A stretch of 64,000 nt of DNA, taken from assembly GCA_027923505.1 (NCBI GenBank), contig BROI01000002.1:2356001-2420000 (forward strand), given 5' to 3'. Position numbers and translations under genes: made by a program. Below, piece after piece: positions 1 through 20,100 of the stretch (positions are counted from its first letter, which is position 1; every line of letters begins with the position of its first letter). Below the pieces are notes generated by a model. The model was not told the DNA's origin. It saw only the letters and a list, made by a program, of their open reading frames with translations, and searched no databases. This DNA is from Mayamaea pseudoterrestris. Taxonomy: Eukaryota.

Positions 1-1040
1 ATCATTTATCTGATTTAATTCCGTTCGAATCGCATCCGTCCACAGCGTGTTGCCGTTGATCTCGTCGAGAGCTTTCGCATCTTTATAATTGCGCGGCAAC
101 CTTACGCCGAATTTGTAGCGTACGCCGTTTGCTTTCGATTTTCGTTTCGCCGCTGTTACCATCTGTCGAAACTTCTTTCGCTTCCGAGTGTAATGCTCCA
201 GCTGCTTCCATCCTGGCTTGTCGAGTAAGCCGTGCTTGAGTCCATACTCTGCGATCGTTATCGGATCGTCCTTCTTCATGATCGCGAGAGGCTCCCACGT
301 CGTCGTTCCGTCAGTCCATTCGACGAGAACGTTACTTGAACTTCCTTTGTATGTCGGATCGTTCGGTTTCAAATTAAGCTCGTGTCCGATTACCTTCGTG
401 AATACCCACTGAGTCGCCGGATCGTTTCGTATATCTTCGTCCATCTGTCGTTCGATTAAATCCGACAGTTCGTTGTAACTTATTAAGTCTTTCGCTGGCT
501 CCTCTCCCATTTGGATTAGGAAACCTTTCGTCGTTTCGAGTAGCTCGTTATCGCGTACTTCGATATATTCGCATACAGTCGCTCGCATTTTCTGACCGTT
601 TTCGTGTTCCCTTACGAACGTGCGTCCGATGAGTTCGCTTGGAGAGAACAGAGGGCATTTATTCCCTGATTCTTGCTCAGCCCTTCTGAAGAACTTCGCT
701 GGTACGTTGGCGTGGTTCGCCATCGGAATTGTTTCGTCGTCGTTTCCTTCGTAGTTGTCGTGACTACTTTCTGTCGCATGCGTGCTATGGTAGCGTCCTG
801 TCGCGAGATCTGGAGTTTCAAAATTTCGCTCGCTTGCGCGTGTAGCTTCTTCAGAAATCTCCCCTCCAGACTCAGGGAAGGAAGGCAACTCTCGTGGTAA
901 CAAGTAGCTGCGCGAGACCACGTTGGAGCGCGGAATCGCCTGAAGCGTGTCGTCCGTCAGAACGAGAAAAGTCATGTGCGGACCGCTATTCTCTGCGATG
1001 CCCACGAATCGGCCGTTGCCAGATCGTACCGCCGAGGGAA
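1..1040 (-). CDS. Copia pol, part 2: integrase C-terminus, chromo-like module and RT N-terminus
   Basis: Manual translation gives a stop-free frame from ~1050 to base 1: FPSAVRSGNGRFVGIAENSGPHMTFLVLTDDT...ELIGRTF...WVFTKVIGH...YKGSSSNVLVEWTDGTTTWEPL...GWK...YKFGVRLPRNY. Absent from the ORF track, probably because it runs off the window. Confidence 0.88.
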
Positions 1041-4000
1041 ACTCCCCTGCGCCTCAAACGTGACCGGTTCCCACCACTTGAAATGTAACAAAGGCGAAAT
1101 ATCCGGCAGATTTCCGAACGCAACTTCCGTTGGCGTGCGCCATCCCAGCGATTTCGTCGCGAGGACGTTCAGTATCATGATTACGAATTTAATCAGCAAA
1201 ACCCAGCAATGGCCTGGCGAACCCGAATCTCGTTGGAGGTTCTCCATCATTGGCTTAATGTGCGACGTGTGACGTTCGCATGGATTTTGTTCTGGATGAC
1301 CCGGTTCTGTGGTCACTTGAGGAATATTGTACATCCGACAGAGATCACTCACAGCCTTGCCAGTCTCCGACTTGGCATTGTCGCTGAGCAGTCCGTTAGG
1401 AGCGCCCACTTCGCGGATAAAATCCTCTAACGCGTTTGACATTTCGCTCTCCGACTTCATCGGGTAGCCGCGCGTGTAAAAACTTTCTCGTCCAACAAAG
1501 AGCTGCATCTTAGTAGCTCCCCCATGCCCTAGAATTCCATCATCCAAAGCTGGCGTGTCAGAGTGTATCGTGTCCGTGGCGAATAGTTCGCGCAACCGCT
1601 GAACGTTCGCGGCCGGAAATCGTGATTTCGTGAGGTGTCGAAATGGTAATCGCGGGTGTGCGCTGAGATGATACCATGCTTCCGTGTGACGTAAAGTCTG
1701 TTGAACGCGCTCAGTCGGGACCCATCCGAGGTACGGCCGAAGAGCATTATAGTCCGGTTCCTTGCTTCTTAGCTTCCGCAAATTAACGCGTGAAAACTGA
1801 GCGTGTCGCACGCACCGATTGATCAGTACGTCAAGTTCGTCGCCAGTGCGTGTCGGCGTGTGACGATTGCGGTGCGTGATACCGTCATCGTCGAATCGTT
1901 CGTCGAAAGATCCATAATCGTGATCTCGTTCGTCGAAATCGTCGTGCGCGTGCTCGACATCGTAAACAGTCGGGTCCCACGGCACGTCCGACGTCATGAT
2001 GACAGTCGGATACTTATCCAAATCATCGAACGTGGGTTTCGTCACGTCCAAGTACACCAGGCCGTCGCGAATCGCCAATGGCAAAACGTAGCCTCCAATG
2101 TTCGTCGTAATTCGTTGCGTTCCGCCAAACATGGTCGGAATATCGTCGACGCGATGTCCCATTGCGCGCAATTGATTCGGGCAATGAATCGTCGGTCCGT
2201 CTCGCTTTAAAGCATACTGGTGACACAGAAGCAGAATGGTTTCGCCACTAAGGGTCTTTGCCAGTCCAGCTGCAGTGCCAATCTTGAGAGCTGGGACAAT
2301 ATGATCGTCAATACCAGTCACATCCACCTCGGCGTTCGTTTCCGAAACGACGAGCATGTCTCCTCCGCATAAGCCTCCGTTCGCGCCGCTGTCGATGAGC
2401 GCGCCTTCGTTGATCCGCTCGTAGTGTGCGCGATTGACGCGCATACGACGATGCATGTTGAAGCTGAATGTACCTCGTCCGGTGTTATCAGTCGTCAACG
2501 ATCCTGTCACTTGCTGAGTTGTAGTACTCGCATTGTTCGCTTGCAGAACCGATCGTGCAGCCGTTTGGACTGACATTCCACTATTGCCGGGCTGAATATT
2601 AATCGTGCCAGGAACGCTTGCGTGATCGTTCGCTACAGATTCCGTCGCGTGACGCTCTTGATGCGCCGCGTTGACTTGCGTCTGCGTCGTAGCCGTGCCT
2701 CGTTGGTTGCGCGGTCGCCATCCGTTTTCGGGTGTCTTGGGCGCCGTCGCACGCTTGTCCTTCAACTGCTTTCGCTGATCAAACTTCATCTCCAACCAGA
2801 CTTCATCCTTCACGCTCGCGTGAGGTTTCTTCATGATCGCTGCGAATCGTTCCGCCGATAAGCCGCTTGGAGTCGCGCCGCCATTGCCGCCGCCGCCTCC
2901 TTTCGTTCCACTAGACTGCGCTTGATTGATTGTGCGCTTAGTCTTCGTCGTCGATGGATGTTTCTTGTCATACTTGATGCAGCACTCTTCTAAGTGCGCG
3001 TACAACTGCGCGAAATTGTCTTCCGAGTCGTGTTGCCCCATGTGTTTCTTGATGGCAATCATTCCGTCAAAACCTGCTAGTGATGCGCTGAATCCAGTGT
3101 GCTCGGAGAAAGCGTCGCGTAGCATGTCGTATCGTTGTAAACCTGTCAGAGCTTCTGCGTCCATTTCGAGCAGCCAGATGACTTTCTTGTAGAACAGTGC
3201 GAGAAATTCGATCGTCGGCCGTGACCACTTCTCGGTCAGCCGCATTCCCTGCAGTTCCGTTCGCGCGCGTTCCTTCTCGATGTGAGCAGTAGCGCCTTCT
3301 TCGTATCGCGTTCGCAATCGTTGGTAGACTTCGCGTCCGTCCATCGTCTTCTTGAACTGCTGTACTGCGAGTGATGCAGACGGAGTTCGACAGTGCGTGA
3401 GAAAGATCCTGTATACAAACACATTCTTCTTTGCATACGCCTTCTGTTCTTTCGGTCCCTTTTCCTTCGGGTCATAATCGTCGTCAAAGACTTCGTGGAA
3501 GTCATGCAATGTAGCGATGACTTTCAACTCGGAAATCCACTGTTTCCACGAGGAATCCAGCTTCATTTCTTTACAATCCCTCGCCGAGAACTTGATAGAC
3601 TTCGTAAATTGGTCTGAATACTTCTCGTCGTCTTCGTCGTCGCCGAGGTCCAGTACGGATGTCGGTGACTGCTTCGTGTCCACGTCCACGCTCGTCGGTG
3701 GCACCTTGTCGGCCGAGTCGGGCTTCGACTCGTCGCCTTCGTTCGTTAGCGTGGAGTCCTTGGATTCGTCCTTCTTGGATTCCGTTTCGCTTTCCTTCGC
3801 TGGAGGTTTCGCTCCGCTTCCGCTGCCCACGCTCGCAATGTTGCGCGCTTGGACTCGTTCCTTCGCTCGTGCTGTGACGAACGTCGCCAGCGTTTCGGTG
3901 GTCAGTTGCGACCATGTCTTGATGTCCGGCGACTCTTGCGCCAAATACCATTCGATCGCGTTCGTGATCGTGCGTTGTTTCATCTTCGTTAGCGAGTGTT

Positions 4001-4229
4001 CGCTCGTTTCCTGCGTGACATTGTCGCCATCGTCAGTCGTCGTCGTTGTCGTCGTCGTGACGTTCCACTTCGTCGCGAAATCGTCGTACTCCATCTCGAT
4101 CAATTGCGTAAGCGATTCTACTCCGAGTTCGTCGAATAACTCCTTGAACTGAGGATCTTGGAAAACGCCTACGTTCTCTTCGTAAACATGCGCAAACGCC
4201 GCGTCTTTCTGCGCGCGAGTTTCCGCCAT
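972..4229 (-). CDS. Copia gag-protease-integrase polyprotein, part 1
   Basis: 1105-aa ORF in the track; first ATG at 4229 (MAETRAQK). Contains the DSG protease motif and the DDE integrase core. Homology switches frame at about 1035. Confidence 0.9.
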   Translation of the reverse strand: MAETRAQKDAAFAHVYEENVGVFQDPQFKELFDELGVESLTQLIEMEYDDFATKWNVTTTTTTTTDDGDNVTQETSEHSLTKMKQRTITNAIEWYLAQESPDIKTWSQLTTETLATFVTARAKERVQARNIASVGSGSGAKPPAKESETESKKDESKDSTLTNEGDESKPDSADKVPPTSVDVDTKQSPTSVLDLGDDEDDEKYSDQFTKSIKFSARDCKEMKLDSSWKQWISELKVIATLHDFHEVFDDDYDPKEKGPKEQKAYAKKNVFVYRIFLTHCRTPSASLAVQQFKKTMDGREVYQRLRTRYEEGATAHIEKERARTELQGMRLTEKWSRPTIEFLALFYKKVIWLLEMDAEALTGLQRYDMLRDAFSEHTGFSASLAGFDGMIAIKKHMGQHDSEDNFAQLYAHLEECCIKYDKKHPSTTKTKRTINQAQSSGTKGGGGGNGGATPSGLSAERFAAIMKKPHASVKDEVWLEMKFDQRKQLKDKRATAPKTPENGWRPRNQRGTATTQTQVNAAHQERHATESVANDHASVPGTINIQPGNSGMSVQTAARSVLQANNASTTTQQVTGSLTTDNTGRGTFSFNMHRRMRVNRAHYERINEGALIDSGANGGLCGGDMLVVSETNAEVDVTGIDDHIVPALKIGTAAGLAKTLSGETILLLCHQYALKRDGPTIHCPNQLRAMGHRVDDIPTMFGGTQRITTNIGGYVLPLAIRDGLVYLDVTKPTFDDLDKYPTVIMTSDVPWDPTVYDVEHAHDDFDERDHDYGSFDERFDDDGITHRNRHTPTRTGDELDVLINRCVRHAQFSRVNLRKLRSKEPDYNALRPYLGWVPTERVQQTLRHTEAWYHLSAHPRLPFRHLTKSRFPAANVQRLRELFATDTIHSDTPALDDGILGHGGATKMQLFVGRESFYTRGYPMKSESEMSNALEDFIREVGAPNGLLSDNAKSETGKAVSDLCRMYNIPQVTTEPGHPEQNPCERHTSHIKPMMENLQRDSGSPGHCWVLLIKFVIMILNVLATKSLGWRTPTEVAFGNLPDISPLLHFKWWEPVTFEAQGSFPRRYDLATADSWASQRIAVRT

Positions 4230-4271
4230 CGTTGTCGTCGTGACAATGTTCTTGCTATCACCTGCGGAACT

Positions 4272-4288
4272 TTCCGGGCCAAGAACCA
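4272..4288 (-). promoter_or_regulatory. Putative primer-binding site TGGTTCTTGGCCCGGAA
   Basis: Starts with TGG (complement of tRNA CCA), lies just after the putative LTR end and ~45 nt before the gag ATG. The cognate tRNA was not identified. Confidence 0.45.
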
Positions 4289-4291
4289 ACG

Positions 4292-4690
4292 TGCGTCCAC
4301 GTTACTTCGTAAATCAATAGTACTCTTCGTCGATAAAGTCTCTATGCCGAGGCAATGAGTCTCAAGACAGTGTTAATCTTGTAACTTGTAAATCAAATCG
4401 TTGCACCTTTCGCTTGTAGCTGTCCTTGGATGGCCAATCCAAGCTTGCAGTTGCTACAATACGAGAGACGAATAAATCGCTTTCTTAACTCTTCAAGCTT
4501 AGTAAGTCTGCTTGTTTCTACTCTATATCGCACTAGTTTCAGCAATATACTTGTTGAATCGCTTCGAAGCCGTCGCTGCCACGCATCACGCGATCGTGAG
4601 GCTGTGGTGAGCCGCGAGTGCCGCTGTGTCACCCTATCGGACATTCGGTGTGACTTGCCCGATTTTCGCTGTTTTCGTTCGCATCCTGCA
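4292..4690 (-). repeat. Putative 5' LTR (~400 bp) of the inner copia
   Basis: On the minus strand it begins TGCAGG exactly where outer-element RT homology (SVYAPVV) stops. It ends ...GGACGCA, 3 nt before a TGG-starting PBS-like tract. The second LTR is outside the window, so the inner boundary is inferred. Confidence 0.65.
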
Positions 4691-6035
4691 AGGACAACGG
4701 GAGCGTAAACGCTTGGCTCAGCGCCATCTTCATCTTTAAGATCTTGGCGGTCGCCTCTGACACAGAATCTCGCTTTGAACTTGCGAATACTCATGTCGAC
4801 GGCTCGCTTCACTTTGAAGACCCAGGTTGTTGGAATGACTTGCTTGCCTTTGGGAACTTTTGATTTGTGAATCCATTCAAACGTTCCTTTGCTAAAGAGC
4901 GCGTCCATTTCGCCCTGCATGGCAGTCATCCACTTGGCTTGGCTTTCCTCGTCTGCTCAGCAAATGTCCCGGTAAGTAGGAGAATCTGGTCGACTGCGCT
5001 CTTTAGAGGCATACAAATGCATGTGAATCTTCCATCATGCATGGAGTAGGAGTTCGTGGCTCACCAGAACCTCATCATTGTTCATCCGTATCAAATTCAG
5101 GAGGCATCACCCAATCTTGGCTGGGACCGTTTTGTGTCGGGCACATTGGATCCGAGTCGATGGCTATCCAAACAGAGCATGAAGGCATTACCATTACTGT
5201 CACTGACAGGAAACCCGAACATGGGTTTCAGCTCACCAGTCTGGGATGGGAACTCATCGTCAACCGCTTGGTTGCGCGACACGGTCTCCGAACGCCGCAA
5301 GAACGCCTTGCTGGCTCACTCGGATTGTTACAGCTAAGAAAGTCTCTTCGTCAGAGCCTGTGGATCTCTGAACCATTGAGGAGAAAGGAGCCTCTGCAGA
5401 CTCGTCCTCTTGCTCGGGTTCTTCGTCAACTTCCTTGTCAGAGACGGAGTCAACGGCAATAGGAGCTTGTACATTAGCTAAACCTTGAGTTGGCGCTTCA
5501 GTTGGTGCTTCGGTTGGCTGGCCGCCTTCTGGGGCTGGCTCTTGGCTTGGCACAACGTCAACGTCTGTAAACAACTCTTCAGTAGCTTCTGCACTGCTCT
5601 TGTCTCTGCGGTGAAACTCAGCTTCTTCCTCAGTCCAGTAGTCCTCTCTTAACTGCGCTGGATACAAGTCTGCCTCGAGCTCCTCCATGTCAAGGTAAAG
5701 CTCTCGGTTTGACCGAAACAGGCGGATCCATAGCGGGTCTGCGTCGTCAAAGCCAGGGTTTGCCACCGTCTGGAACAGCTCATCATACACCACATGAAAT
5801 TGTGGTGACACGTGCTGAGTAACCAGATTCCGGATGAGACCAACGGTTGATGAATGAGCTGTAGACATGCCCAGAAACTGGCCTCGCCTTGAGCGTGGGC
5901 GCCATTTCGGGATCTTCTTTTTGTCTTGCAGCTTTGGATCTAACACGAAGGTTGGACAACCCCAAACTCTTGCACGGCTAAGGTTTGCACCTCCACCGGA
6001 GACACCGGACATCACTTCCAAAGGCGTTAATTTCT
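4691..6035 (-). mobile_element. Decayed fragment of a second Ty1/copia element (integrase C-terminus to RT N-terminus), interrupted by the inner element
   Basis: RVWGCPTFVLDPKLQDKKKIPKWRPRSRRGQFLG...VSPQFHVVYDELFQTV is the SH3-like integrase end. AMQGEMDALFSKGTFE...IPTTWVFKVKR...KFKARFCVRGDRQ...YAPVV is the RT start. Stops and frameshifts lie between (e.g. PTYRDIC*ADEE). No gag or LTR is visible upstream of ~6035. Confidence 0.9.
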
Positions 6036-6443
6036 ATGCGGCCAGTCTTATATGCCGTCGTCGCAGAACGATGAGGTGGCCCGGCGCCTCGCCGCGCCGA
6101 AAAATAGCATTGCACCGGGAGTCTGACCTGACTGCGTGGTACACATCGACACCACTACTACGAGTACTGTACTGTACTGTACCACATGATGATGTTATGG
6201 TGGTTACGGTCGGTTGCATCAATAATGCTGTTCGACCTTTTCGTTTGATGCAAACTGGATACAATATACAAAGCAAAGCTTACTTAAGAATGAGTACAGG
6301 TATGAAACATCAGCAACACTCATCGTCAAAGCCTCCAGTGCACGAGCCTGCAGATCCGTCAACGTAAAAGAGCCGACGCGGGAACACTAACCATTTACAG
6401 TTTGTGCGCCTCGGAACACACACTCTCAGAAAGATCAGGTTTG

Positions 6444-9306
6444 TTAGTACTCAGATTGGTACGGAACAAATTCCTTCTTGGTCATGGCTTGCAGGATGCC
6501 ACTGAGCCGATGCGCGCTTAGCCGAGTTTCGTCGTCCGTTGCGTCCTTGGCTTCGTCTATGAATGTGTCGACAAACTCATCGAAATTGGCAGGCGATTGC
6601 AGTACATCTTCCTGAGCCACATTATCATAAACGTCGCTAATCAAGTCAACGGCCATGGCCAAGACACGATTGTCCTTGCCTGAGTGCGATGTCTGCAGGG
6701 ACTGGAGGAAGCAAGCGCAATGAGATACATACTCCGGAAAAAAGGAGAGCTTGCATTCCTTTTTGATTTTGGAAAAAATGTCTTTATAGGCTGAGAGAAC
6801 AGCGATTCGAAGGTCGTTCACAAGGTTGCCATTATTGACGCCGACTTGGGTCAAGCACTCCCGTGAAGCTACCGCAGAGTTGCCAGAAACTCCAGGCATC
6901 ATGCGGGTGAAATCACCAATGCAACCGATAAGCTTCGGCTCAATGTCCAGAGCGACAGGAAATAGCGAGAGCATACGCATGAGAGCGTCCACAATGTCTT
7001 CATATACTGGACTAGGAAAAGGACCACTGGCAGTGCCTATTTCGAACAAGAGTTCTACCGCGGCAGCGCAGACTCGTTTTTCGGCCAGGCTGCAAAGAAT
7101 AGTCGGGAGGATATCACGAATATGTCCCTAATCGATTAAGAAAGGTGAACCGTCAAGGTGAGAACAAGTTTACGAATCATTGTATAAAATCCGAATTTAA
7201 CGACTCACCATGAAGTCGTTTCCCAAGCCAGCAGCGACGGCAGATATGAGCTGATATGCATTCATAACGCAATCTTCCTCAAAATTGACACTTATAATGA
7301 TCATGCGCAACATATCAATAATCACTTTCGCTTCGGCACTTCCATCTGCTGCTGGCAAGCGCTTGAAGATAGCATTCACGAAAACACAATAATGCGGCAT
7401 CAATATTTTATAGCTTGACGGAGTCAATAAAATTTCGACGCGAATATGAATACATTGCAATAGCTCCTTCAAGATGACGATGGTATCCTTCGCGCCCGAC
7501 GTAATTAAATTGGCAATCGCCACCGCCGCTTCAGTACGAAGATTGTCGCTCCCCCCTTGCTCCGTCGCTAACATCAGCTGCGTAATCAAAGGATCCATGT
7601 CTACCGACAACAAACTGGTATCATCATCTGCATTGATGCGACAGTTGATAGCTATGCTGGCAATGGCTGATGCAGCAATGATAGCAGTGTTCCCACGCCG
7701 CACTTTAAGTTCATTGATCAGAAATCGAAGGATCGAATGGACTTGAGCCTCCTGGAGTGCGGCAATATGGTATCGGCAAACGTTCGATACAGCGCTCATG
7801 GTCGAGTGTATGAGAGTCGTGTGAGGATCTGCCAGGGTGGCGAGGAACGTTGGAAGAGTGCGCTGGATATGGAGGCTTATAACCTTCGTCGTTACGCTCT
7901 CCAAGATACAACTAAAGGCCGTGATAGCAGCCCCTCGCAGCCGCCAGTTTTCCATTTCTAATTTCTCTTCGAGAGCATGAACGACGAGAGGAACAATATC
8001 GTCTTGAAGGACCCGGCTAAGCACTTTCAATCCGTGTGCTGCACTAGCACTTAATTCATTCTCCTCTACGTCGTCAACATCGTCCGCGTGCGGCTGCAGC
8101 AGCTCCAAAATCACCAACGTATAGGCTTTCATCGCAAATTGGTCTGGTAGCAAATTGGTGTCCTTTCCATTCGTAACAGCGTTGTTCCAGACTTGAATGG
8201 CCCGGGTCTTGCACAAACTCGGCCAGGCGGAACTGCACAAAATTACGCACATCCAAGAAAGCATATCGCTTTCGTGCTTGCGAAGTAACTTGAAGTGATA
8301 CTTGGCTGCGTTGGCCAAACAATCTAACGCCTTTGAGACCAATTGTATGTCCGGTGAGGCGATGGCTAACTTAATTGCCTTAAGGATAGCACCGCGTGTC
8401 TCCTTGTCTTCCATACTCTTCTGGTAGAACTCCAGCGCACTGTAAAGAGCGTTGAAAGCAACATAGCGCATGCGATTCGAGTTAGGAGCGTGGCAGCCAT
8501 GCACCATGGTTGTGAACATGCTAATTTCAATCGAGGTTGGTAGCTGCCTTTGATAACCAAACTGGGCAATAAACTCCAAAGAAAATTGCAGGCATTTCAG
8601 CAGCATGATCCTGGAAGTTTTAAGAGTGGTCGTCGTCGATGAGATGGCTTTAAAAAGAGCAACCAGAGCAGGCCATTCGTCAAGCGTCAGCTCAAAGGCG
8701 GCGACTGCAGCAGTCACAACGCAGACAGCATGATATACCGCAGCATCATCATCGTCATTTTGAGCCATTTCCAGCGCTTGCATCAGCAACGTCTTGATAT
8801 TCTTGCGAGTCAACGGATCCACTTTCGCCCAGAGTTCATGTACAGCGGCAGCCAAATACGTTGCCGCCTTAGGACTGGTAGACGTTCGATTTGAAACGAC
8901 GAGGCGAGCGAGAGAGCTGCAATAGTCACCATAGTTGCTGGACTTCCAGCTTCCGAGAGCGGCGACCGTTGCGTTCGTTGCTACCCCATCTGCAGCGGGA
9001 AATGAAGAAAAGTGAGCGTGAGGAGAAATGGGAAGAATTAACACAGAACCTTGCCGAACCGTCAACGAATGTAATCTAAAAGCGTGCAGCATAATCAGGA
9101 TTCGATATGGCATCCTCTTGCCCGCCATCAGTTCCATTATTAAAATCACGGCGGAGTAGAGACCATTTCATAATTTAGGTGCGCGGTGGTGAATATCAGT
9201 CGCACCGATCAGCGAAAACGTCCGACACGGCATGAAGCATGAGTCACTTACCATCGTCCTGATACTGTTCAGTTGCCGCCAAGAGCAATGAGGTCATTTT
9301 AGTCAT
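6444..9306 (-). CDS. Divergent importin-beta (karyopherin beta-1-like) HEAT-repeat protein; exons ~9306(or 9507/9582)-9252, 8989-7209, 7127-6444
   Basis: HEAT-like helices with importin-beta-like motifs (ENWRLRGAAITAFSCILE, an acidic loop DDVDDVEENE, IEPKLIGCIGD). GT-AG introns at 8990-9251 and 7128-7208 keep the frame. The spliced N-terminus MTKMTSLLLAATEQYQDDDGVATNATVAALGSWKSSNYGDYCSSLARLV resembles importin-beta starts. Confidence 0.75.
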
Positions 9307-9651
9307 TGGTGATGATGTTTTGCATCCGTGACCTTCCAAGCACTCCAGCTCGCCGTCTTCCATGTCCGGAGCTTTGATCGAGCAAGCTGGATCTAGCGCG
9401 AAGGGGTGCGCGGGACGCCGGCACTTCTGGCATTTATATCGTTTCATGATACGCTTATCACGATGCTGGCATTCAGCGTTGCTGCACTCGCTACCGTCGA
9501 CGTCCATTACTTTGGCGAATATGGCAATGCGGCTTCTTCCGTTCGTTCCTGAAAAAAATACTTTGCAAGGGATCATCGCCATGGATCCCAACCGTCGCGC
9601 CGAAACCCGAGTACCGGTACGATTAATGCTATGGTCGAGAAGCTTTAACCA

Positions 9652-10988
9652 TCCTGCGGATCTGGAGGCAGGGAACAAGCAGGAGGCAAATGCACATAGT
9701 GAATGCACTATACACTATCCAGATGTGTCCTTGGATCATACCCAAAGCCAGTTTACAAAGAGGTTATGGGGATCTGATGTTTGCCACTGCTAGGTTAGGC
9801 AGTCACATAGTACCTGCCAACAAACGCTGCTGACCTGAAGGCAAAAGGCAAGCAGGAGGCTGATGCACAAACCAAATTCACCAAGGAGGTAGGTCTTGTG
9901 CCCTTGGAGCATGCACAGTGGCTGTACGCATAGAGTTTGTGGGCACTTCATGTTTGCCACTGCTAGGTTGGTGTTTGGCAGTTGGGTAGCACATACCAGC
10001 AACTCCTGCGGATCTGGAGGCAGGCAACAAGCAGGAGGCAAATGCACATAGTGAATGCACTATACACTATCCATTTGTGACCTGGGATCATGCCCCAAGC
10101 CAGTTTACAAAGAGGTTGTGGGGATCTGATGTTTGCCACTGCTAGCATAGGCAGTCACATAGTACCTACCAACAGAAGCTGCTCACCTGAAGGAAAAAGG
10201 CAAACAGGATGCTGATGCGCAAACCCAATTCACCAAGGAGGTATGTCTTGTGCCTTTGGATCATGCACAGTGGCTGTATGCATATAGTGTGTGGGCACTT
10301 CATGTTTGCCACTGCTAGGTTGGTGTTTGGCAGTTGGGTAGTAGAAACCAGCAACTCCTGCGGATCTGGAGGGAGGCAACAAGCAGGAGACAAATGCACA
10401 TAATGAATGCAATATACACTATCCATTTGTGACCTTGGATCATGCCCCAAGCCAGTTTAAAAAGAGGTTGTGGGGATCTGATGTTTGCCACTGCTAGGTT
10501 AGGCAGTCACATAGTACCTGCCAACAGAAGCTGCTGACCTGAAGCAAAAAGGCAAGCAGGAGGCTGATGCGCAAACAAAATTCACCAAGGAGGTATGTCT
10601 TGTGCCCTTAAATCATGCACAGTGGCTGTACACATAGAGTTTGTGGGCACTTTATGTTTGCCACTGCTAGGTTGGTGTTCGGCAGTTGGGTAGTACATAC
10701 CAGCATTCCTGCGGATCTGGAGGCAGGCGACAAGCAGGAGGCAAATGCACATAGTGATGCACTATACACTATCCATTTGTAACCTTGGATCATGCCTTAA
10801 GCCAGTTTACAAAGAGGTTGTGGGGATCTGATGTATGTTTGCCACTGCTAGGATAGGCAGTCACATAGTACCTACCAACAGACGCTGCTGATCTGAAGGC
10901 AAAAGGCAAGCAGGAGGCTGATGCGCCAACCAAATTCACCAAGGAGGTATGTCTTGATCCCTTGGATCATGCACAGTGACTGTACGCA
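9652..10988. repeat. Tandem array, ~352-bp unit, ~3.8 copies
   Basis: CCTGCGGATCTGGAGG recurs at ~9653, 10006, 10356 and 10708. Each unit has two copies of TGTTTGCCACTGCTAG. The array is CpG-poor and TG/CA-rich. Confidence 0.95.
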
Positions 10989-11462: not shown

Positions 11463-14400
11463 CTACTTTCCGCAGATGGAAGCCGTTGCAAATGAAAATA
11501 ACGCGTGCAGTGATTCCGAAAGGCTTGGGCACGCTATAGAGTCAACCTCAAGTTCCGACGAATGAAATAGCTCCTCAGTGCTCAACCCGCCTAACCTCTG
11601 TCGTTCTTTCTCTTGGAGCATCTTCTTTCCCGTCGTCTCTTGCAGTCGAGTGTGCTGCAACAATTTAATTTTGGTAGCAAATGACATGAATCCGTCATAA
11701 AGTTCTCGAGCACACGCCAACTCACCCTCACGAAATAAGTAGAAAATGCTCTCTTCAATTATATCTCTTGACTTCTCATCGACGCATGTAGAATGTAAAG
11801 TGTTCACCAGGCCTTTCAATTCTTGTTCACTGCCTGGCTGTACTCTCGCTGACCTGCCGCGCGTCTTCTTCTTCCCACGGTCTCTCTTTTTCCCACTCTG
11901 GTCATTGTATTTGCTTTTATGACGAGTAGCTTCCTCGCTTCCAGTTAAACTGAAAGAGGTTGTCGAATTGATAGATATAATGCTGGACAGAGACCCGATG
12001 CTTTCGCCACTAGCAACGCTTGTCATACTTAGATTGGATGCGTTGGAGGCAGTCGAAAAGAGAGAATTTGTGTCATCGGCATCAGCCTCGGCTGTGGCGT
12101 CTCCCTCGCCCAGTGCAGACTCTTTCCGCAGTTTCAGTACCTGTGTATATCGTACAAGAGTCTCGCCAAAAATTTCACCTTGATCCTCGAGATCGGCAAC
12201 TGTCGTTTTCGCAAAACTTACAGCCGCGTCAACGCACCGTCGAGTCAAATCAGCTCGGCCTCCAAGCGCGGCTAATCGCCCCGCCTCGCTCCACATCTCG
12301 CCTTGTATCAAAATATCGACGGCAAGCATTGTGTCCTGCCCGTACTGCAATGCGATTGTGGCCGCATCGGCCAACAATTCTCGCCTCCGCTCGTTACCAG
12401 CAGACGCAGATGCGAATTCATCCGCTATCTCATGGGCCATTATCTGCAAACGTGAAACATCGGTCTCCTTTAACATAGCATTTTGTCTCGAGATTATCTG
12501 AAAAAAGCTTTTCCAGTCCCTGCATAGCCTGGCCGTTGTTTTACAGCGATCATAATCACACGGATCTGTGTTCATGAAGATGGCGAGGGCAGCTGTAAAT
12601 TTCTTCTGTTGAACAAGGTAATCGCCAAGCGAAACCAAAATTTCTGATTTATATTTTTTATCTTTGAAAAGTTCCAACGCGACACCATACATGTGGTGCT
12701 CCTTTATAAGCGTCATACATTGCGGAAAATCGTTTCCGACGGAGGGCGAATCAGCCACGTCGTCGACATGAGCCCTATCAAGGCATTCTCCCTCTGCAGC
12801 AGAAATAGAGAGACTTTTTAAGGCCTGTTCATACCGTTGCAGGCGAAAGTCGACCTCAAATTTGGCATAGTGCTTTGGCAACTCGTTGTAGCGCTTGAGG
12901 AGCGGTAGATACTCTTTCGGGTCCATTTGTGAGTTTCGAGCAATAGCTCGAGCCATATCAAAGTTGTACATACCCAAAGCGGTCTTGAAGAGGATCTCAT
13001 AGTCTGCAAGAAACGCGAGATACTGGATCGCCGACTGTGCAGCCTCCCCGAACAATGGAGGCGTGTTCGACGATGGGTGGCTAATCGACGTAACGCGTTC
13101 ACAAATAAGATTAAGTGCGTCGCTGAGCTTTGGCGGATCTTCCTTTGCAAACGTCGAGAGTATTGGCAAGAGATAATAACCCTTGTGAATAGACTTTCCA
13201 CTCAGTGTTTGACCGCTCAGCTCCGCGTCGATCATAAGTGAACGCAAACGTCGACAGCAACTAGTAACTTTTCCACGGAAGTCAAATGAATCGGTGTATC
13301 CTTCGTCAGGACCACGAAGCCAGTCAGGAATCAGAAATTGACCGCGCGTTGAATCGTAATTGCCGAGAGTCGAGATAAAAAGGTTTAAGTGGTCAACATT
13401 CTCCACTTGTGATAATAACTCTACAGCGCCTTCGCCCTCAAGAAAACGGGAAGGGTCCAAGTCGACAATCAGATTCAAATCGACCTTATGTGTTCGCATC
13501 ATCATGAACGCATTAAATAACTCTTTTTGTTTGATGCAGAATATTACAAACCTCAAAATAAGTGCTCTCGGGTATAGCCCTTCCAGATTGCCTCTTGGCA
13601 TCTGCACGACAGCTAGCGGGCGGTCGGGCACAATTGCGACAATGCGTGCGTCACGCTCGACATTTCGGGGCTCAAACCCAATAAGGCAGGTGTTGTCGTA
13701 GGAACCGAGGAGCGGGTCAAAGTTGCTAAGCTCTTCAAAAGCAAGAAAGCGAAGTTGGCATTGTGATCCAGACGACGCATAGCAAAGAAATCTTTGGTGT
13801 GTCGAAAGGCAAAATGATGACACTGCCTCCGCAAGCAAGATGTCATTACAGTAAAGGCGAGACTTTGATGACATGCCCACGACGAGCGTCTTGCTTTCGC
13901 TATGACACCTGTCATCATATCTGGAGCTATCGCGAAGACAAGATATCCACAAACATGGCTCGAGCAGAGGGTCTGCCAACGAATGTTCCAAGCACCATGC
14001 ACTCTCATTTGGTAGTCGTGAATAATTAAGTAAAGATCCATTTTCGAGCTCGATAAGTGCACTGTCCATTGTATCTAACCACGGAGCAATTGCTATGATT
14101 CGTCCATCTGTTTTTGTCGTTGTCTTTACCACTGATTTGCCCGCATCGTCACCCGAAACAGTAATTATAACGTTGACTATATATTCGTCCGTTTCGACAG
14201 TACCATGTGGAACAATTGCAGCAACAAAGGTTATTGTTGCTGCATTTTCTTCCACAACGCAACAGTGTCTTGCAAACTGAAGCGCTTCGTTAGGTTGCGT
14301 CACTACTCGCAGCACTGGCGGAGCAAACACATTCCGTTGCTTTCCAACGCGGCCAGCCTCCAGCACAGCCAAACTTCCATTGTTAAGTAGTACAAGACCC

Positions 14401-15671
14401 AGATAACTAAATTTCTCGTCACGAGATGGAATAAATTGTGCAATGGACTGTTCAAAAAGGTGTGCTGACACAAACATAGGAGGCGGCACAAGAGCCTTAC
14501 CGAGCGGCGTTATATTCAGTGCCTGACCATCAATTACGTAGGCCGAACAATCCGATGATGAATAATGAATAGTAGCTGCATCCCATCTGACATCGTATTC
14601 GACGAACGAATGATCTGGCTTAAAACTTACTGCTATGGTATATGGTTGATAAGGGTGAAACGCGGCTCGAACGACCTTTCTATCAGAAAACATCAAGTCC
14701 TTTTTCAGGTACCAATGATAGTTTGACCTGTGCCAGAGCTGCACCTTGTCGCAGTGCGCGCACCGGAGTACCACGGCAAGTAGATCCGAGTGCGAGTTCC
14801 AGTTCAGCTGTAAAACGACTGCATTTGTTGGATTCTCTCGCAAAGAAAATTCCCGATGCCTTAGCCCATTGGGTTCGAAGAATGCGACTTGCTGCGTTTT
14901 TGTGCCTTTTCGCTGTATCGATGCAAGTAATAGTGAGCAGCCAATACCTGCCCATGCCAATGGCGATTGTAAATTGGGCGCAAGCTTTCCACTTCCGTCC
15001 TCGATCCGTCCAATGGCGTAATACTGTAGCGTGTCGCGCTGATACATTCGGACTTTGCGTTGCTTATCGCATGCGTCGACATAGCTGACGGCCACCAAGG
15101 TCGAATCAGGCCTCCAAGCAATGGAAACACCACAGTCCACTTGCCTTTGTTCCGCGTCATTGCTCTGATGACACTGATGCAAGTGATCTTCGACTGGCAT
15201 TTCTTCTAGCACTTCAAACTGAGCATTCATGCTGATCAAGACTGACTTGAGCGATTGGGTTGCTGTGGCATTCTGTGCTTCAGTCATAGTCAAAAGCAGC
15301 AAAATTTCCGCGTCAGGACTCCATGCACCCGCGTGTATTCCATTCTCAAACTCTCCAACCAGTTCCGCCTTTCCGGTGCTCGGGTCCAGCGTCACTACAG
15401 CGCCATTCATATGATTCAACACGACCAACATGCCGTTGGCGTCAATTGCCGTCAAGTCGAACCACGAGTTTTTCAAATCTGGCTCAGAGCAGACATTATT
15501 GGCGTTAGTCGACCATTCTAGGCTGTCATCAATTCGCATCTTAGCCACAATGCCGTCGCTGGTGAGGATGACGCGACTGTCGTCGTCTGAGAAACAGACA
15601 TCGACAATCGCTCCACTGGCGTCGATGGGAGCGTGTCTCCATCTTTCTCCCTGCAAACTAAGGTTTTTCAT
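11463..15671 (-). CDS. ELP1: Elongator complex protein 1 (IKI3/IKAP), intronless
   Basis: Starts MKNL. Conserved motifs include AWSPDAE, FFEPNGLRHREF, WHRSNYHWYLKK, LVPPPM, VQMPRGNLEGLYPR and SQMDPKEYLPLL, with a basic C-terminal region. ~1400 aa. Confidence 0.95.
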   Translation of the reverse strand: MKNLSLQGERWRHAPIDASGAIVDVCFSDDDSRVILTSDGIVAKMRIDDSLEWSTNANNVCSEPDLKNSWFDLTAIDANGMLVVLNHMNGAVVTLDPSTGKAELVGEFENGIHAGAWSPDAEILLLLTMTEAQNATATQSLKSVLISMNAQFEVLEEMPVEDHLHQCHQSNDAEQRQVDCGVSIAWRPDSTLVAVSYVDACDKQRKVRMYQRDTLQYYAIGRIEDGSGKLAPNLQSPLAWAGIGCSLLLASIQRKGTKTQQVAFFEPNGLRHREFSLRENPTNAVVLQLNWNSHSDLLAVVLRCAHCDKVQLWHRSNYHWYLKKDLMFSDRKVVRAAFHPYQPYTIAVSFKPDHSFVEYDVRWDAATIHYSSSDCSAYVIDGQALNITPLGKALVPPPMFVSAHLFEQSIAQFIPSRDEKFSYLGLVLLNNGSLAVLEAGRVGKQRNVFAPPVLRVVTQPNEALQFARHCCVVEENAATITFVAAIVPHGTVETDEYIVNVIITVSGDDAGKSVVKTTTKTDGRIIAIAPWLDTMDSALIELENGSLLNYSRLPNESAWCLEHSLADPLLEPCLWISCLRDSSRYDDRCHSESKTLVVGMSSKSRLYCNDILLAEAVSSFCLSTHQRFLCYASSGSQCQLRFLAFEELSNFDPLLGSYDNTCLIGFEPRNVERDARIVAIVPDRPLAVVQMPRGNLEGLYPRALILRFVIFCIKQKELFNAFMMMRTHKVDLNLIVDLDPSRFLEGEGAVELLSQVENVDHLNLFISTLGNYDSTRGQFLIPDWLRGPDEGYTDSFDFRGKVTSCCRRLRSLMIDAELSGQTLSGKSIHKGYYLLPILSTFAKEDPPKLSDALNLICERVTSISHPSSNTPPLFGEAAQSAIQYLAFLADYEILFKTALGMYNFDMARAIARNSQMDPKEYLPLLKRYNELPKHYAKFEVDFRLQRYEQALKSLSISAAEGECLDRAHVDDVADSPSVGNDFPQCMTLIKEHHMYGVALELFKDKKYKSEILVSLGDYLVQQKKFTAALAIFMNTDPCDYDRCKTTARLCRDWKSFFQIISRQNAMLKETDVSRLQIMAHEIADEFASASAGNERRRELLADAATIALQYGQDTMLAVDILIQGEMWSEAGRLAALGGRADLTRRCVDAAVSFAKTTVADLEDQGEIFGETLVRYTQVLKLRKESALGEGDATAEADADDTNSLFSTASNASNLSMTSVASGESIGSLSSIISINSTTSFSLTGSEEATRHKSKYNDQSGKKRDRGKKKTRGRSARVQPGSEQELKGLVNTLHSTCVDEKSRDIIEESIFYLFREGELACARELYDGFMSFATKIKLLQHTRLQETTGKKMLQEKERQRLGGLSTEELFHSSELEVDSIACPSLSESLHALFSFATASICGK

Positions 15672-15943
15672 GTCGTCCAATACAATGAGTTTTGTAAATC
15701 ACACCTCTAAATTGTGCTGAGCGGGATTAACGCAGGATCTTGGACGTCCAAATCCAAAGAAAAATGATGTCGGCCCCATGCAACGAATGGACCATGGCAT
15801 GTGTCTCACCAGGACCGGATCTTTCTGAAAGATCGCAGTCGATTTAATACCCGTACGACATCAGCCATTCACCTGCCATTCTGCGACCCTCGTCGATATT
15901 GAGCAGCACTCCTTCGTTGACATTCTCTCCTAAGATAGCTGCG

Positions 15944-16864: not shown

Positions 16865-17123
16865 CAGTTAAGTTTGGTTTCCTCGTGCAATACAAACATG
16901 CCAATACACTCTACGACCAGCTCGAGCAGCTTCCTCGCCCGAGAAGAAGGAGTAGTACTTGTACGATGACGTAACAACTAATATTGTCACAGAAGTAACG
17001 ATGCGACACGTATGGTAGATGCGTCTTTCGGACGAGCGAACAATCCGGCATCCTCATGTTCTTGAAACCGTGTGACGTAAAGTCTCCTCAAGCTTCGTAG
17101 ATTTCTATGAAATTCTTCTCAAC

Positions 17124-20100
17124 ATGGCAAAGAAGGCTCTGTTCGATGTCTTGGAGCGGACCATTGGAAAATACGTTGTAAATCTCGATGCAGAGTCGCT
17201 AAACGTTGCAGTGTGGAGCGGCAAGATTGAATTGCACTCGCTCGAGCTAAACATACAAGCCGTCAATGAGGAAATTAGTCGACGCGCTATTGAGGCTCCA
17301 AATTTAGCTTTACCTCTCCGTGTCACATCTGGACATTTTACTTCGTTTCAAGTTGACGTTCCATGGGCAAACTTGACAAGCAAACCTGTGGTTTTAAGGG
17401 CGCAAGGATTGAGTGTGTCGCTAGAACCGTTTAATCACCTTGCTACCACTGATATACTTGACCAACACGAAGACGAAACTACCAAGATGACTCAGATACA
17501 GTCCCAGCGAGACAAGTCATTACAAGTCGCCGAAATCTATCGACAGCAGGCAGTGGCCTTGCAGAAACTGGCAGAACAGGACCTGGAGGGCGATGGGAAC
17601 AAGAAATCCACCTTTGGAGCTCGGCTCGTTCGTCGCCTTTTGGAAAATGTCCAAATTGAAGTGAAGGATGTTCATCTGTCAATCAATGGGGCTGGATGCT
17701 CGGCTGGTGTCATACTTGACTTCTTCCAGTTGGTGACGACGGACATGCTTGGCCATCGCACATTCGTGGACCGCACGGCCGGACGAAACAAAAACACCTC
17801 GTTTCTGCACAAGGCTTTGGAAATTCGTGGACTGGGAATATACATGGACGAGGATGTCGTTAGTGGTTGCGCCATGCCGTCGATTATTGAGGAAGAGGGC
17901 GCTTCTCGGCACTCGTATATTCTTGCGCCGCTTTCGTTTGAAACGAAGCTACGACAGGCTGACGCGACGGTTTGTCGTGATTACCCAAAGTACTATTTGG
18001 AAAGTGAAGTGCATGGACTTTCAATCGTCTTATCAAAATTGCAATTAGAGCTTCTTCGGAAAACCAAAAACCTACTTCAACAGCCAGTTGGACAGCTGAG
18101 CCCGATGTTCCCAGAATACCGCCCACTCTTACGACCATTACAAGGTGTATCGGCGCGCGATTGGTGGCGTTATGCATATCGTTCTATTGGTCGTCTTAAT
18201 GGGAAGCGCGCTTGGATGCATTTTTACCAAGTGTTTAAGCTCCGCAAACGTTATATAGATTTGTATAAGCGCAAAATGTTTACAGTCACTTGTCCTTGGT
18301 TGACGCCGCTAACTCCGCAAGAAGTTGACGAGATGCAACAAATTGAACATGATCGAACAATTTCTGTGGATGGCATTATGACGTGGAGAACCATTGCCAC
18401 GGGTCAACTTGACAAAGAACGCACCAGATACCAATCAGTCACGGGCGCATCTACAACTTCCAGGGGTAGTGTGTTCAAGTCTCTGTTCGGTCCGCCGTCG
18501 GCGCCCGTTTCACTTGGAACTGAAAAATTAGATACACCGCCCATTACACTTTCTACTGATGAGTTACAGCAGTTGGAAACTATATCAATGGAAAGGGTGG
18601 CAGACAATGAACTGTCGTTGGACTCGCGTCTTTGCGACATCAAGTTCGTTCTTGGCTCGCTTGACCTTCAGTTAACTACATATGATAAACGTCCTTTGAC
18701 GGGCTTGATCATGGGAACGGTTACTGCATCCTTTTGTGCCAATGTTGATGGGTCCTACGTAATGGAATGCTCCATGACGAGGTTAGTGATAATAGACAGA
18801 GTGACTCCGCAAAGCATTTTTCCAAATATCCTTCAAAACCAGAGAACATCGGGCGGGATTGACGATGAAAAAAATTATGCCTTTCGTGCTCATGTATCGA
18901 GATTAAAGGCAGGTGATCAAGTCGTTAAGCTCTGGCTGGGCAAATTTGAAGCTGTGGCATCGCCCAAACTGATCGTCGAAGTTAAGCACTTCCTTGCCGA
19001 GGATGGCGCAGCCGCGAGACTTAGTGGCATTGCTCAGAATCCTGTGCTCGCACAGTCGATGTCAGGTTCCGTCGATATCTTTTATGATGCCAGCGAGGGT
19101 GAAGACATGCCATCGCCGCCAAGTGCGTTTGACAAACAAACTGGTTCGGTCGCATCGGCCATCTTTGACCCATCGCAAACATTAATAGCTGCCTGGAAGT
19201 CTAAAACAGATAGAAAAGCTGCGTGGATGGTCGACCTCGATATTCAAGCGCCAATTGTCGTTGTGCCCGAGAGTTGCACGGATTTGCAAGCGGGTATTCT
19301 GCTGTTTAACCTTGGTCGATTTCAGATTAGCTATGGAAAAGGTGGCAAAGAAATTGCTGGGACTAGAAAAGTTTATCAGTGGTTTCTTGACAATCCGCGC
19401 ATCCCTTTGGTGGCGGATGTCGTTTTGGAACACGGGGCGTTGTGTGTCGACAATCTGACTTTTGCAATTGGTCAAGCACACCAGCTGCAGTCTCTACTGG
19501 CAGCCGACGGCCCTAACGCTGACTCCATTTCTGCTTCGGCGATATATGAACCCATGAGTCTTGAGACTGCATTTGCGGTGGAATCCAGTGGGTGCGACTT
19601 GACTCCGCGCTTTTGTCTGTACGGCGTCATCCCAGCGATTGGTGTAAATATTTCTCCTGTCCTTTTGCATGCCGTAATATCAGTATTGAAGGCCTGGAAA
19701 AATATAGGAAGTTTTGGGGAAGGTACTGCTCTTATCGAACCCCCGCCTGTCTTGGATCGACTGATGGACGATTTGAGATACACTGTTCCAAAAAACTACG
19801 AAGATACAACAGAGATACGAGATGTGTTTACATCCTTTTACGTTGATGTGAACCTCCAGAGACTGTCCGTCAGTTTAAAAGCCGATAATGGGGGAGATGG
19901 TATCGAAGCCCACCTAATTTCAGTTTCAGCATCGCTAGCTAGTAAATCCGACACAAGTTCACTGTCCAGGCTGACTATGGGCTGGTTCTGGATTGTTGAT
20001 CGACTTGATTACGATTTTCAGCGGTGTCAGCGGCTCCTGGTCCACTCGCAGCTTCCACTGGATGCAGATGGCTTGGCTGGTCGACACCACCAGATTTTAA

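Follow-up and report, generated by a model that had tools for sequence, protein, structure and literature searches.

Near the beginning of the 64,000-nt stretch of Mayamaea pseudoterrestris DNA analysed here (the window), an eight-ligand zinc finger lies on the minus strand directly upstream of a divergent importin beta-1-like gene, to which it can be joined in a single open frame through a candidate intron. We regard it as quite possible, though not probable, that a chimeric finger-importin protein is made from this arrangement, and we propose tentatively that a karyopherin took over a transposon-type finger, whereby the Ran-binding end of an importin-beta would carry a nucleic-acid or chromatin module belonging to a new two-zinc family. 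The parts of the putative gene are the following.

9252..9507, minus strand: candidate first coding exon, from ATG 9507 to the donor (sequence, start of relatives)
9322..9486, minus strand: eight-ligand zinc-finger core, C33 to C87, in C4HC3 order (alignment and AlphaFold2)
8990..9251, minus strand: candidate intron 1, 262 nt, phase 1, GTAAGT...pyrimidine tract...CAG (signals, phase)
7209..8989, minus strand: exon 2, importin beta-1-like HEAT repeats with acidic loop region and best-conserved repeat (PDB phmmer)
7128..7208, minus strand: intron 2, 81 nt, GTGAGT...TAG, confirmed by a contig join in sequencing run X3 and by the public gene model P0001, which reads across it
6444..7127, minus strand: exon 3 with stop, C-terminal importin beta-1 TPR-like repeats (Pfam TPR_IMB1)

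On homology, the HEAT-repeat gene is a true yet divergent, orphan relative of importin beta-1, and its preliminary description as a divergent importin-beta is borne out. In a phmmer search of PDB, residues 44-586 of exon 2 (543 residues) were collinear with residues 71-637 of human KPNB1 at E 3.3e-26, and yeast Kap95 matched the same exon at E 1.6e-13; in exon 3, the Pfam family TPR_IMB1 was recognized at 8.5e-9, scoring 35 bits (cut-off, 29.1). Exon 2 yielded weak Pfam matches under the cut-off (TPR_IMB1, HEAT_EZ and MMS19), and IBN_N (PF03810) was absent among the families at E<=1 when this exon was scanned alone. The nearest Atlas clusters of the importin part were all importin-beta families (0.95-0.96). 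Its sole close match is the M. pseudoterrestris gene model P0001, which starts at ATG 8606 and is devoid of the finger, and two word-seeded searches revealed no relatives outside the species. According to PMC9724779, the strain is diploid, its heterogeneity amounts to 2.97%, and its gene models were obtained via funannotate from RNA-seq; importin is not mentioned in the accessible part.

Since exon 2 begins level with approximately residue 27 of importin beta-1, leaving about 26 N-terminal residues missing, an upstream coding exon is needed. The elements previously listed for such an exon, namely the C4HC3 pattern, ATGs 9507 and 9582, the donor at 9251 and the acceptor at 8990, are all present. 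The 3′ end of the exon reads ...GAT G/GTAAGT, with the GT at 9251-9250, and this is the sole GTAAGT among 11 GT sites in range, 5 nt ahead of the stop of the frame; the acceptor, ...TTTCTTCATTTCCCGCTGCAG/, whose last base is 8990, surpasses the other acceptors shown in the length of its pyrimidine tract (14 AG sites in range) and is situated where the importin homology is about to begin. The phases match, and when 9252 is joined to 8989, a single frame stays open for 931 codons from ATG 9582 (906 from ATG 9507) up to its stop, while splicing of 9251 to an acceptor at 9076 does not give an open frame, also as anticipated. The frame of exon 2 is itself open up to 9167, with the first in-frame ATG at 9137, and the interval from 9137 to 8990 shows no importin homology and resembles the 3′ end of an intron. 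That the tail of the candidate exon supplies the first helix of the importin, as had been thought, is doubtful: AlphaFold2 predicts no helix there (pLDDT ~50), and two finger relatives align weakly into it.

The minus-strand ORF at 9244-9714 encodes the pattern C-x4-C-x12-C-x2-C-x4-H-x7-C-x13-C-x5-C, with the ligands, numbered from ATG 9582, being C33, C38, C51, C54, H59, C67, C81 and C87 (window positions 9322-9486). The candidate exon, 85 codons plus one base, comprises the entire finger and a 23-residue tail. In-frame ATGs on this strand are found at 9582, 9576 and 9507, and further on at 9447, 9366 and 9306; ATG 9507 has a G at -3 and a G at +4, and ATG 9306 has a C at -3. Two features lie at the margins of the candidate exon.

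9508..9582, minus strand: in-frame upstream extension with ATGs 9582 and 9576 (X1 polymorphisms, start of relatives)
9244..9246, minus strand: TGA ending the finger ORF when intron 1 is retained

Retention of intron 1 would give a product of 87 aa, from ATG 9507 to this TGA. The DNA contig from run X1 is longer by one base in its T7 run (9552-9558) and has substitutions at 9531 and 9596. Because the extra T shifts the frame of products from 9582 or 9576, ATG 9582 is an unlikely start, and it was rejected on the grounds of this one-base length polymorphism behind 9551; the segment 9508..9582 is most likely a 5′ leader rather than coding. From the N-terminus of the relatives, we infer that translation starts at ATG 9507. 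No second copy of the finger was found within the 64-kb window.

We compared the finger by phmmer with 1.84 billion representative proteins at a cut-off of E<=1e-3. It is very probably a genuine domain and more than a chance pattern; judged by alignment, it is a conserved eight-ligand domain outside Pfam, from a dozen environmental protein clusters. The search yielded 14 proteins, 11 of which, all environmental and eukaryote-like, align across the finger (E 2.3e-9 to 2.1e-4). P0002, P0010 and P0015, which are internally repetitive and were matched in 5-9 stretches each, were dropped as spurious. Throughout the family set (n = 12: P0003-P0009, P0011-P0014 and P0023), C33, C51, C54, H59, C67, C81, C87, I45 and L63 are invariant, and C38 is kept in 11 of 12. 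The window finger is 38-47% identical to its relatives, and with 21 of 25 consensus positions (other members, 18-21 of 23-27) and all eight ligands retained, it has not decayed. In the reverse tblastn search, each of the 12 family proteins matched the window only at 9271-9540 (E 7.7e-13 to 5.3e-6). The homology stops at 9316-9322, a few bases before ATG 9306, in nine of these 12 matches, and two relatives align weakly into the exon tail past the finger. In the relatives, the finger is located at the extreme N-terminus, and their N-terminal Met is level with ATG 9507. An exact search of metagenome contigs with the 29-nt 3′ end of the exon returned 0 matches.

Behind the finger, one cluster (P0013, P0021 and P0022) carries the DNA-binding helix-turn-helix (HTH) of Tc5 transposases (HTH_Tnp_Tc5, Pfam PF03221), which is thereby recognized by Pfam in one of the 12 clusters; in a second, P0007, it was found by pairwise alignment (E 9e-5). 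As the finger family is tied to Tc5/pogo-type HTH proteins, gene-fragment capture appears to be its likely origin in the window. P0013 and P0007 beyond the finger matched nothing in the window better than E 0.18, and the remainder of the family proteins was not found elsewhere in the 64 kb (best other match, E 0.005), so that the window carries the start codon and the finger only; a Tc5/pogo-type (CENP-B-like) HTH was not encountered in it. The 1872-nt locus of P0013 (L001) contains just the P0013 ORF. Importin or HEAT domains are absent from the 11 relatives and from seven profile matches of 124-2000 aa, and the same fusion, for which a search in other proteins had been suggested, does not occur among the 11 relatives, nor does P0001 include the finger. 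Two predicted relatives are short and finger-only: P0014, with 122 aa, and P0012, with 159 aa, which ends right behind the finger. The contigs of the short relatives measure 665-3392 nt where length was recorded, and their proteins may be incomplete.

Searches for the fold and class of the finger gave few leads. The window exon matched no Pfam family at E<=1, and the 11 relatives, scanned at E<=0.1, gave no PHD match, the rows obtained being stray zinc-ribbon or FYVE ones (E 0.019-0.038). Two AlphaFold2 models had mean pLDDT values of 66 and 69, with 70-83 across the core. When both models were compared with PDB by Foldseek, nothing was found at E<=1e-3; the best row had E 0.33 (the ATXR5 PHD finger), and the non-significant rows were mostly PHD fingers at TM 0.33-0.38. 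VIA-align gave non-significant best Z values of 2.4 and 2.9, the latter for a FYVE-like finger. The best match in a PDB sequence-profile search was a C2H2 finger at E 0.19, with no PHD match, and RING-type rows were weak (TRAF5 at E 0.55 in the sequence profile search and the Slp4 ‘RING’ at Z 2.4). The best Atlas match, a zinc ribbon of InsA at 0.76, is below lead level. The designation ‘PHD-like’, used at the outset, is therefore at best tentative: it agrees with the ligand order but not with the x4/x7/x5 spacing or the empty Pfam scan, and the fold searches gave non-significant rows.

For transcripts, we relied on contigs from four unlabelled sequencing runs, X1-X4, of which X3 was taken as RNA-like solely on account of a contig that is joined across intron 2; X3 contigs have depths of 2-6, drop rare forms and do not carry the strand, and uncovered intervals of X3 and X4 (e.g. 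8084-8455 and 9062-9130) were not used. No contig in any of the four runs joined 9252 to 8989. One X3 contig (9131-9532) spans the finger, extends past ATG 9507 and crosses the donor 9251 unspliced, and another (8814-9061) crosses the acceptor 8990 unspliced, with exon-like depths of 3.7 and 2.3, respectively. Genomic DNA contamination as a source of these contigs was judged unlikely from the ratio of satellite to gene in summed contig depth, which is hundreds-fold in the DNA runs X1 and X2 and about 1.3-fold in X3, and which is only a hint, summed contig depth being a poor measure. The X3 RNA as seen would yield just the 87-aa peptide. RNA from the opposite strand is also present.

7158..7231, plus strand: intron of a spliced antisense RNA, AAG/GTGAGA...GCCAG/, 74 nt (joint in X3)

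Because spliced antisense RNA exists at the locus, the unspliced X3 contigs are ambiguous. As regards the chimeric karyopherin first proposed, the frame, the signals and the conserved domain speak for it, and the missing 9252/8989 junction and the two unspliced X3 contigs speak against it.

Taken at face value, contigs left unspliced at 9251 and 8990 in the very run in which intron 2 is spliced would suggest two separate products: an 87-residue finger peptide alone, and an importin starting at ATG 9137 or later, or hardly expressed, with the signals of intron 1 unused or rarely used. The intact, family-typical finger, the short finger-only relatives P0014 and P0012, and the exon-2 frame being open to 9167 would all be in line with such an arrangement, which we nonetheless consider rather unlikely. 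The segment from 9137 to 8990 is free of importin homology and looks like an intron 3′ end, and it would have to be a coincidence that a GTAAGT whose phase suits the best acceptor lies 5 nt ahead of the stop; moreover, the unspliced contigs may be antisense, and the short relatives incomplete.

Alternatively, intron 1 could be real and transcription could begin downstream of 9507, so that an ordinary importin would start at ATG 9306 or 9297 and the finger would be a leftover of the inserted fragment in the promoter or leader. Canonical importin-beta begins directly with HEAT 1, and the 18 residues from ATG 9306, together with exon 2, would reach to about 8 residues short of the importin beta-1 N-terminus according to the alignment offsets; the family homology also ends just ahead of this ATG. 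The RNA-like contig extending to 9532, however, would, if sense, place ATGs 9507, 9447, 9366 and 9306 before or at the start, and ATG 9306, as already mentioned, has a C at -3. Retention of 21 of 25 consensus positions and all eight ligands would also be surprising in an untranslated relic, barring a very recent insertion of the finger, yet there is but a single contig over the finger in the X1 DNA run at 90% likeness. On balance, we view an ordinary importin of this kind as unlikely.

Comparison of the alleles has a bearing on the chimeric reading as well, as one of them is interrupted in exon 2.

8733..8734, minus strand: site of 3 extra bases in the other allele (X1 contig), giving an in-frame TAA in exon 2 (contig table)

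The next ATG past this TAA is 8606, i.e. the start of P0001, which shares six X1 substitutions; the window protein and P0001 differ at 12 of 693 residues. In 6447-8606, the allelic differences include 8 non-synonymous vs 5 synonymous ones, and constraint on the importin part looks weak from this comparison of alleles; the gene may be decaying. Single-base deletions at 6473, 7551, 7958, 8185 and 8652, seen in X2 or X4 only, were set aside as likely contig errors, and P0001 stays in frame through three of these sites. For the candidate exon 9252-9507, no allelic differences are listed in runs X1, X2 and X3, as compared with 5 in the neighboring non-coding sequence (405 nt) and 27 in the remaining 3214 nt of the comparison, the corresponding chances of finding zero being ~0.04 and ~0.12 by a Poisson estimate, which is weak. 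Intron 1 differs between the alleles at 9169 and 9230.

The surroundings are repeat-rich and include two further features.

9651..10988, no strand: 352-nt satellite array directly upstream (Tandem Repeats Finder: 3.8 copies, 91% matches)
5260-6033: copia-type integrase fragment

The satellite has a very high summed contig depth in the DNA runs X1 and X2, and, because it starts at 9651, a possible promoter would be limited to about 145 nt. Such a neighborhood, with satellite and integrase fragment nearby, may be that of a locus in decay, in which importin paralogue and finger are both becoming pseudogenes, transcription is weak and two-stranded, and the open chimeric frame is functionless. The allelic TAA, the 8 to 5 ratio of non-synonymous to synonymous differences, the importin part without relatives outside the species and with IBN_N undetected, the low contig depths in X3 and X4 and the antisense RNA would all fit. 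We hold decay of the entire locus to be improbable, however, as the window allele is open for 931 codons over three exons, intron 2 is correctly spliced, the importin part still has its acidic loop and its most conserved repeat, and the finger exhibits no decay.

In the chimeric reading, which we put forward tentatively, a 5′ gene fragment comprising the start codon and the finger would have been captured from a small eukaryotic family with no previous description, in which the eight-ligand finger normally heads Tc5/pogo-type HTH proteins, and placed 5′ of an orphan, fast-evolving diatom importin beta-1 paralogue, in frame through the GT-AG intron from 9251 to 8990. A sense transcript initiated upstream of 9507, after removal of the intron, would encode a 906-residue protein from ATG 9507, with a two-zinc finger on the N-terminal end of the HEAT solenoid, which is predicted to bind RanGTP. 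Through the finger, the karyopherin may gain a further binding site, be it for nucleic acid, chromatin or another protein, by which it could be tethered or directed, or its N-terminal arch gated. Whereas the intact domain, the importin homology and the fit of frame and signals are shown here, the capture, the splicing of intron 1, the start at 9507 and any function remain putative.

Few eukaryotic proteins are as uniform in architecture as the importin-beta proteins, and we know of no importin-beta with an N-terminal zinc finger. Titles and abstract openings in the literature revealed nothing relevant on importin-zinc finger fusions in diatoms. If true, the fusion would represent a rare instance of a transport receptor gaining a domain, and a clean case of a new gene formed from the captured first coding piece of a transposon-type gene; the receptor might be anchored on DNA or chromatin or directed there, or might be self-contained and dispense with an adaptor for one class of cargo. 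These prospects are tempered by an importin part that is species-restricted and weakly constrained, by one broken allele, and by the only RNA-like data being without the fusion. Fusion or not, the finger slightly extends the repertoire of zinc-binding modules associated with Tc5/pogo-type DNA-binding proteins.

Comparison with known systems shows that the HEAT solenoid of importin beta-1 (KPNB1, 2p8q and 1qgk; Kap95, 2bku and 3nd2) is collinear with the window gene; where importin beta-1 has its acidic loop, the window gene has an acidic stretch, and a well-conserved repeat comes next. The window gene differs in being very divergent, in having one allele interrupted by a stop, and in the N-terminal zinc finger that it may carry. 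With PHD fingers (PF00628; ATXR5, 5vab, and UHRF1, 3asl), the window finger has in common the C4-H-C3 order over ~55 residues, whereas three of its four ligand pairs, C-x4-C, H-x7-C and C-x5-C, are non-PHD, the canonical PHD spacing being C-x2-C ... H-x2-C ... C-x2-C; the H-x7-C is x5 in most relatives. The FYVE-like fingers of Slp4 and melanophilin (5x6t, 2zet), the zf-HIT of Hit1 (2n95) and zf-AN1 (1wys, 1x4v) were aligned by VIA-align at Z 2.1-2.9, with rmsd 2.5-4.8 over 42-55 residues, and their ligand patterns differ from that of the window finger; for the modelled structures, such Z values are far under the level at which a shared fold can be distinguished from a widespread arrangement. 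As to the finger family itself, although its acidic linker, KRGPK motif and HTH are absent from the window, where the importin gene is found instead, the window copy shares with it the domain, the eight ligands, the N-terminal position and the start.

The elements from which the preliminary description had built a 5′ exon for the importin gene, namely the cysteine pattern, the start codons, the donor, the acceptor and their joining in frame, were all found where it had placed them; they are set out here together with intron 2:

9244–9714, minus strand: finger ORF, with in-frame ATGs at 9582, 9576 and 9507
9322–9486, minus strand: finger ligands, C-x4-C-x12-C-x2-C-x4-H-x7-C-x13-C-x5-C, followed by a 23-residue tail
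9251, minus strand: candidate donor G/GTAAGT; if read on, the frame meets its TGA at 9244–9246
8990, minus strand: candidate acceptor, a long pyrimidine tract and CAG
7128–7208, minus strand: intron 2, confirmed twice over: an X3 contig has it spliced out, and the annotated protein reads across it

At the sequence level the join of 9252 to 8989 is in phase, and with both introns removed the frame stays open for 931 codons from ATG 9582, or 906 from ATG 9507. The donor is the sole GTAAGT among 11 GT sites in range, the pyrimidine tract at 8990 exceeds in length those of the other acceptors shown (14 AG sites lie in range), and joining 9251 to 9076 leaves no open frame, as had been predicted for that splice.

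The HEAT-repeat gene is indeed a divergent importin-beta, as first proposed. Residues 44–586 of exon 2 (7209–8989) align collinearly to residues 71–637 of human importin beta-1 (E = 3.3e-26), including an acidic stretch where the acidic loop would lie and, after it, a well-conserved repeat; yeast Kap95 is matched at E = 1.6e-13, exon 3 (6444–7127) yields Pfam TPR_IMB1 at 35 bits against a cut-off of 29.1, and the closest Atlas clusters are all importin-beta families. The Pfam matches of exon 2 are of HEAT type, all sub-threshold, and do not include IBN_N. By the alignment offsets exon 2 starts at about residue 27 of importin beta-1, even with the frame extended upstream to ATG 9137, so that an upstream coding exon is expected. 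In searches of 5.8 billion proteins, which are word-seeded, score only word-sharing candidates and may miss distant relatives, the sole match of the importin queries was P0001, a 693-residue hypothetical protein from Mayamaea pseudoterrestris (99% and 96% identical to two queries); within such searches the gene is an orphan by sequence.

A phmmer search with the 110-residue finger exon returned 14 proteins at E ≤ 1e-3 among 1.84 billion representatives, three of which, being internally repetitive, were discarded. The 11 kept (122–498 aa) come without exception from environmental contigs, 665–3392 nt long where recorded, and align over query residues 20–98. Nine positions (C33, C51, C54, H59, C67, C81, C87, I45 and L63) never vary, and C38 is shared by 11 of the 12 aligned sequences; the window finger is 38–47% identical to its relatives and keeps 21 of 25 consensus positions, on par with other members. 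By these sequence comparisons it is a genuine domain, and its family is new to Pfam, which matched nothing within the finger in the window exon or the 11 relatives. In one cluster (P0013, P0021 and P0022) Pfam places a Tc5 transposase DNA-binding HTH downstream of the finger (E = 1.2e-8 to 3.1e-8), a region to which P0007 aligns at E = 9e-5. P0006, P0007, P0008 and P0009 have an acidic linker, then, in several, a basic motif, K-R/H-G-P-K/R, and a conserved W...C stretch some 10–13 residues after it; motif and stretch may provide a further DNA-binding element in front of the Tc5-type HTH.

In most relatives the finger begins 3 to 11 residues past the first Met, a position matching ATG 9507. Searched back, all 12 family proteins match the window only at 9271–9540, with no family sequence past the finger across the 64 kb, and for nine the match ends at 9316–9322, a few bases short of ATG 9306. 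Were the importin to begin at ATG 9306 or 9297, the finger would be untranslated, which we consider unlikely. A profile search for longer finger-bearing proteins added only P0023 and gave no importin fusion, so the same architecture, which the preliminary description had proposed to seek elsewhere, was not recovered there.

Allelic differences bear on the state of the locus. Run X1 supplies a DNA contig that follows 6190–9695 collinearly, with 16 substitutions and four indels, among them three bases added behind 8733 that read GTA TAA in frame, so that exon 2 ends prematurely in this allele. The extra bases are missing from contigs of X2 (same sample as X1) and X3, and the sample therefore looks heterozygous at 8733–8734. 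The first ATG after the TAA, at 8606, is the exact start of P0001, with which the X1 contig has six substitutions in common; the stop explains the N-terminus missing from this public model, whose truncation is uninformative about exon 1. One base more in the T7 run at 9552–9558 of the X1 contig would frameshift any product begun at 9582 or 9576. Across runs, 6447–8606 has eight non-synonymous versus five synonymous differences, and of the 693 residues of P0001 12 depart from those encoded in the window; from these small numbers the importin part looks weakly constrained. No allelic difference is listed for 9252–9507, versus five in the adjacent 405 nt of non-coding sequence, which is suggestive only. 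That the whole locus is a decaying relic appears distinctly improbable, the finger domain itself being without decay.

Transcript evidence was sought in contigs of four unlabelled runs, X1–X4, of one study; the contigs are strandless, with rare forms dropped. X1 and X2 are DNA-like, collinear through introns; X3, being spliced at intron 2, contains RNA-derived sequence. Two X3 contigs are unspliced over intron 1, one (9131–9532) spanning the donor, flanked by 121 and 281 letters, and the other (8814–9061) the acceptor, flanked by 72 and 176. Depths in the RNA-like data are 2–6. The 9252/8989 joint, which the preliminary description had proposed to look for in RNA reads, is absent from the contigs of all four runs. 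RNA-like sequence in X3 extends 25 nt past ATG 9507, so the start between 9310 and 9500 that was held to count against the fusion is not seen, but the intron is retained. The finger could instead be translated alone, from 9507 into the TGA behind the donor, as an 87-residue peptide; we view this as rather doubtful. The unspliced X3 contigs could also be antisense in origin. Another X3 joint, at the border of exon 2 and intron 2, has GT..AG on the plus strand only and so reveals a spliced antisense RNA over the importin gene:

7158–7231, plus strand: antisense RNA intron of 74 nt, AAG/GTGAGA...CAG/

In the chimeric reading, the finger exon would be spliced through 9251/8990 to the importin exons and yield a 906-residue protein. 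The design of the sequence argues for a real intron 1 and a translated finger, since the family's native start codon is present at 9507, the finger has not decayed, family homology stops just short of the importin-like tail, the sole consensus donor lies 5 nt ahead of the stop, and the best acceptor sits in matching phase at the onset of importin homology. The unspliced RNA-like contigs, the want of a second finger-importin fusion and a constraint that looks relaxed speak against the chimera, and we place its production somewhat short of an even chance.

The surroundings are as follows:

5260–6033, minus strand: copia-type integrase fragment, directly 3′ of the importin gene; 257-codon frame with a retroviral-polymerase SH3-like domain (PF25597, E = 7.2e-7)
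9651–10988, upstream of the importin gene: satellite, 352-nt period, 3.8 copies, each unit built of two halves of about 173 nt
11463–15698, minus strand: ELP1 (Elongator subunit 1), beyond the satellite; single 1411-codon frame
17076–26581, plus strand: VPS13-like gene; two long overlapping frames, implying a short intron near 23303–23396

Summed contig depth over the satellite bins is enormous in X1 and X2, about 12,000–39,000 as against some 32 and 7 for the flanking gene, and the satellite looks like a major one of this diatom genome. A 1109-codon open frame at 972–4301 on the minus strand has no Pfam family at E ≤ 1e-5. An origin of the locus by insertion or rearrangement would fit this repeat-rich setting.

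As to its type, the finger was described as PHD-like; the eight-ligand C4HC3 pattern is conserved, but the spacing is unlike PHD at three of four ligand pairs, and neither Pfam nor Foldseek gives a significant PHD match. The Foldseek rows are weak (best E 0.33) and for the most part PHD fingers, and VIA-align (best Z 2.9) ranks FYVE-like, zf-HIT and AN1 fingers on top. AlphaFold2 with the family alignment models the core at moderate confidence (pLDDT 70–83) as containing short strands, and leaves the exon's tail non-helical; a cross-brace fold would be plausible. Given these weak scores and the non-PHD spacing, we class it as an undescribed eight-ligand, probably two-zinc, finger. We know of no importin-beta with an N-terminal zinc finger, and the portion of the literature consulted held nothing relevant on such a combination; pending an RNA or protein junction, the fusion is a plausible but unproven new architecture among importin-betas.
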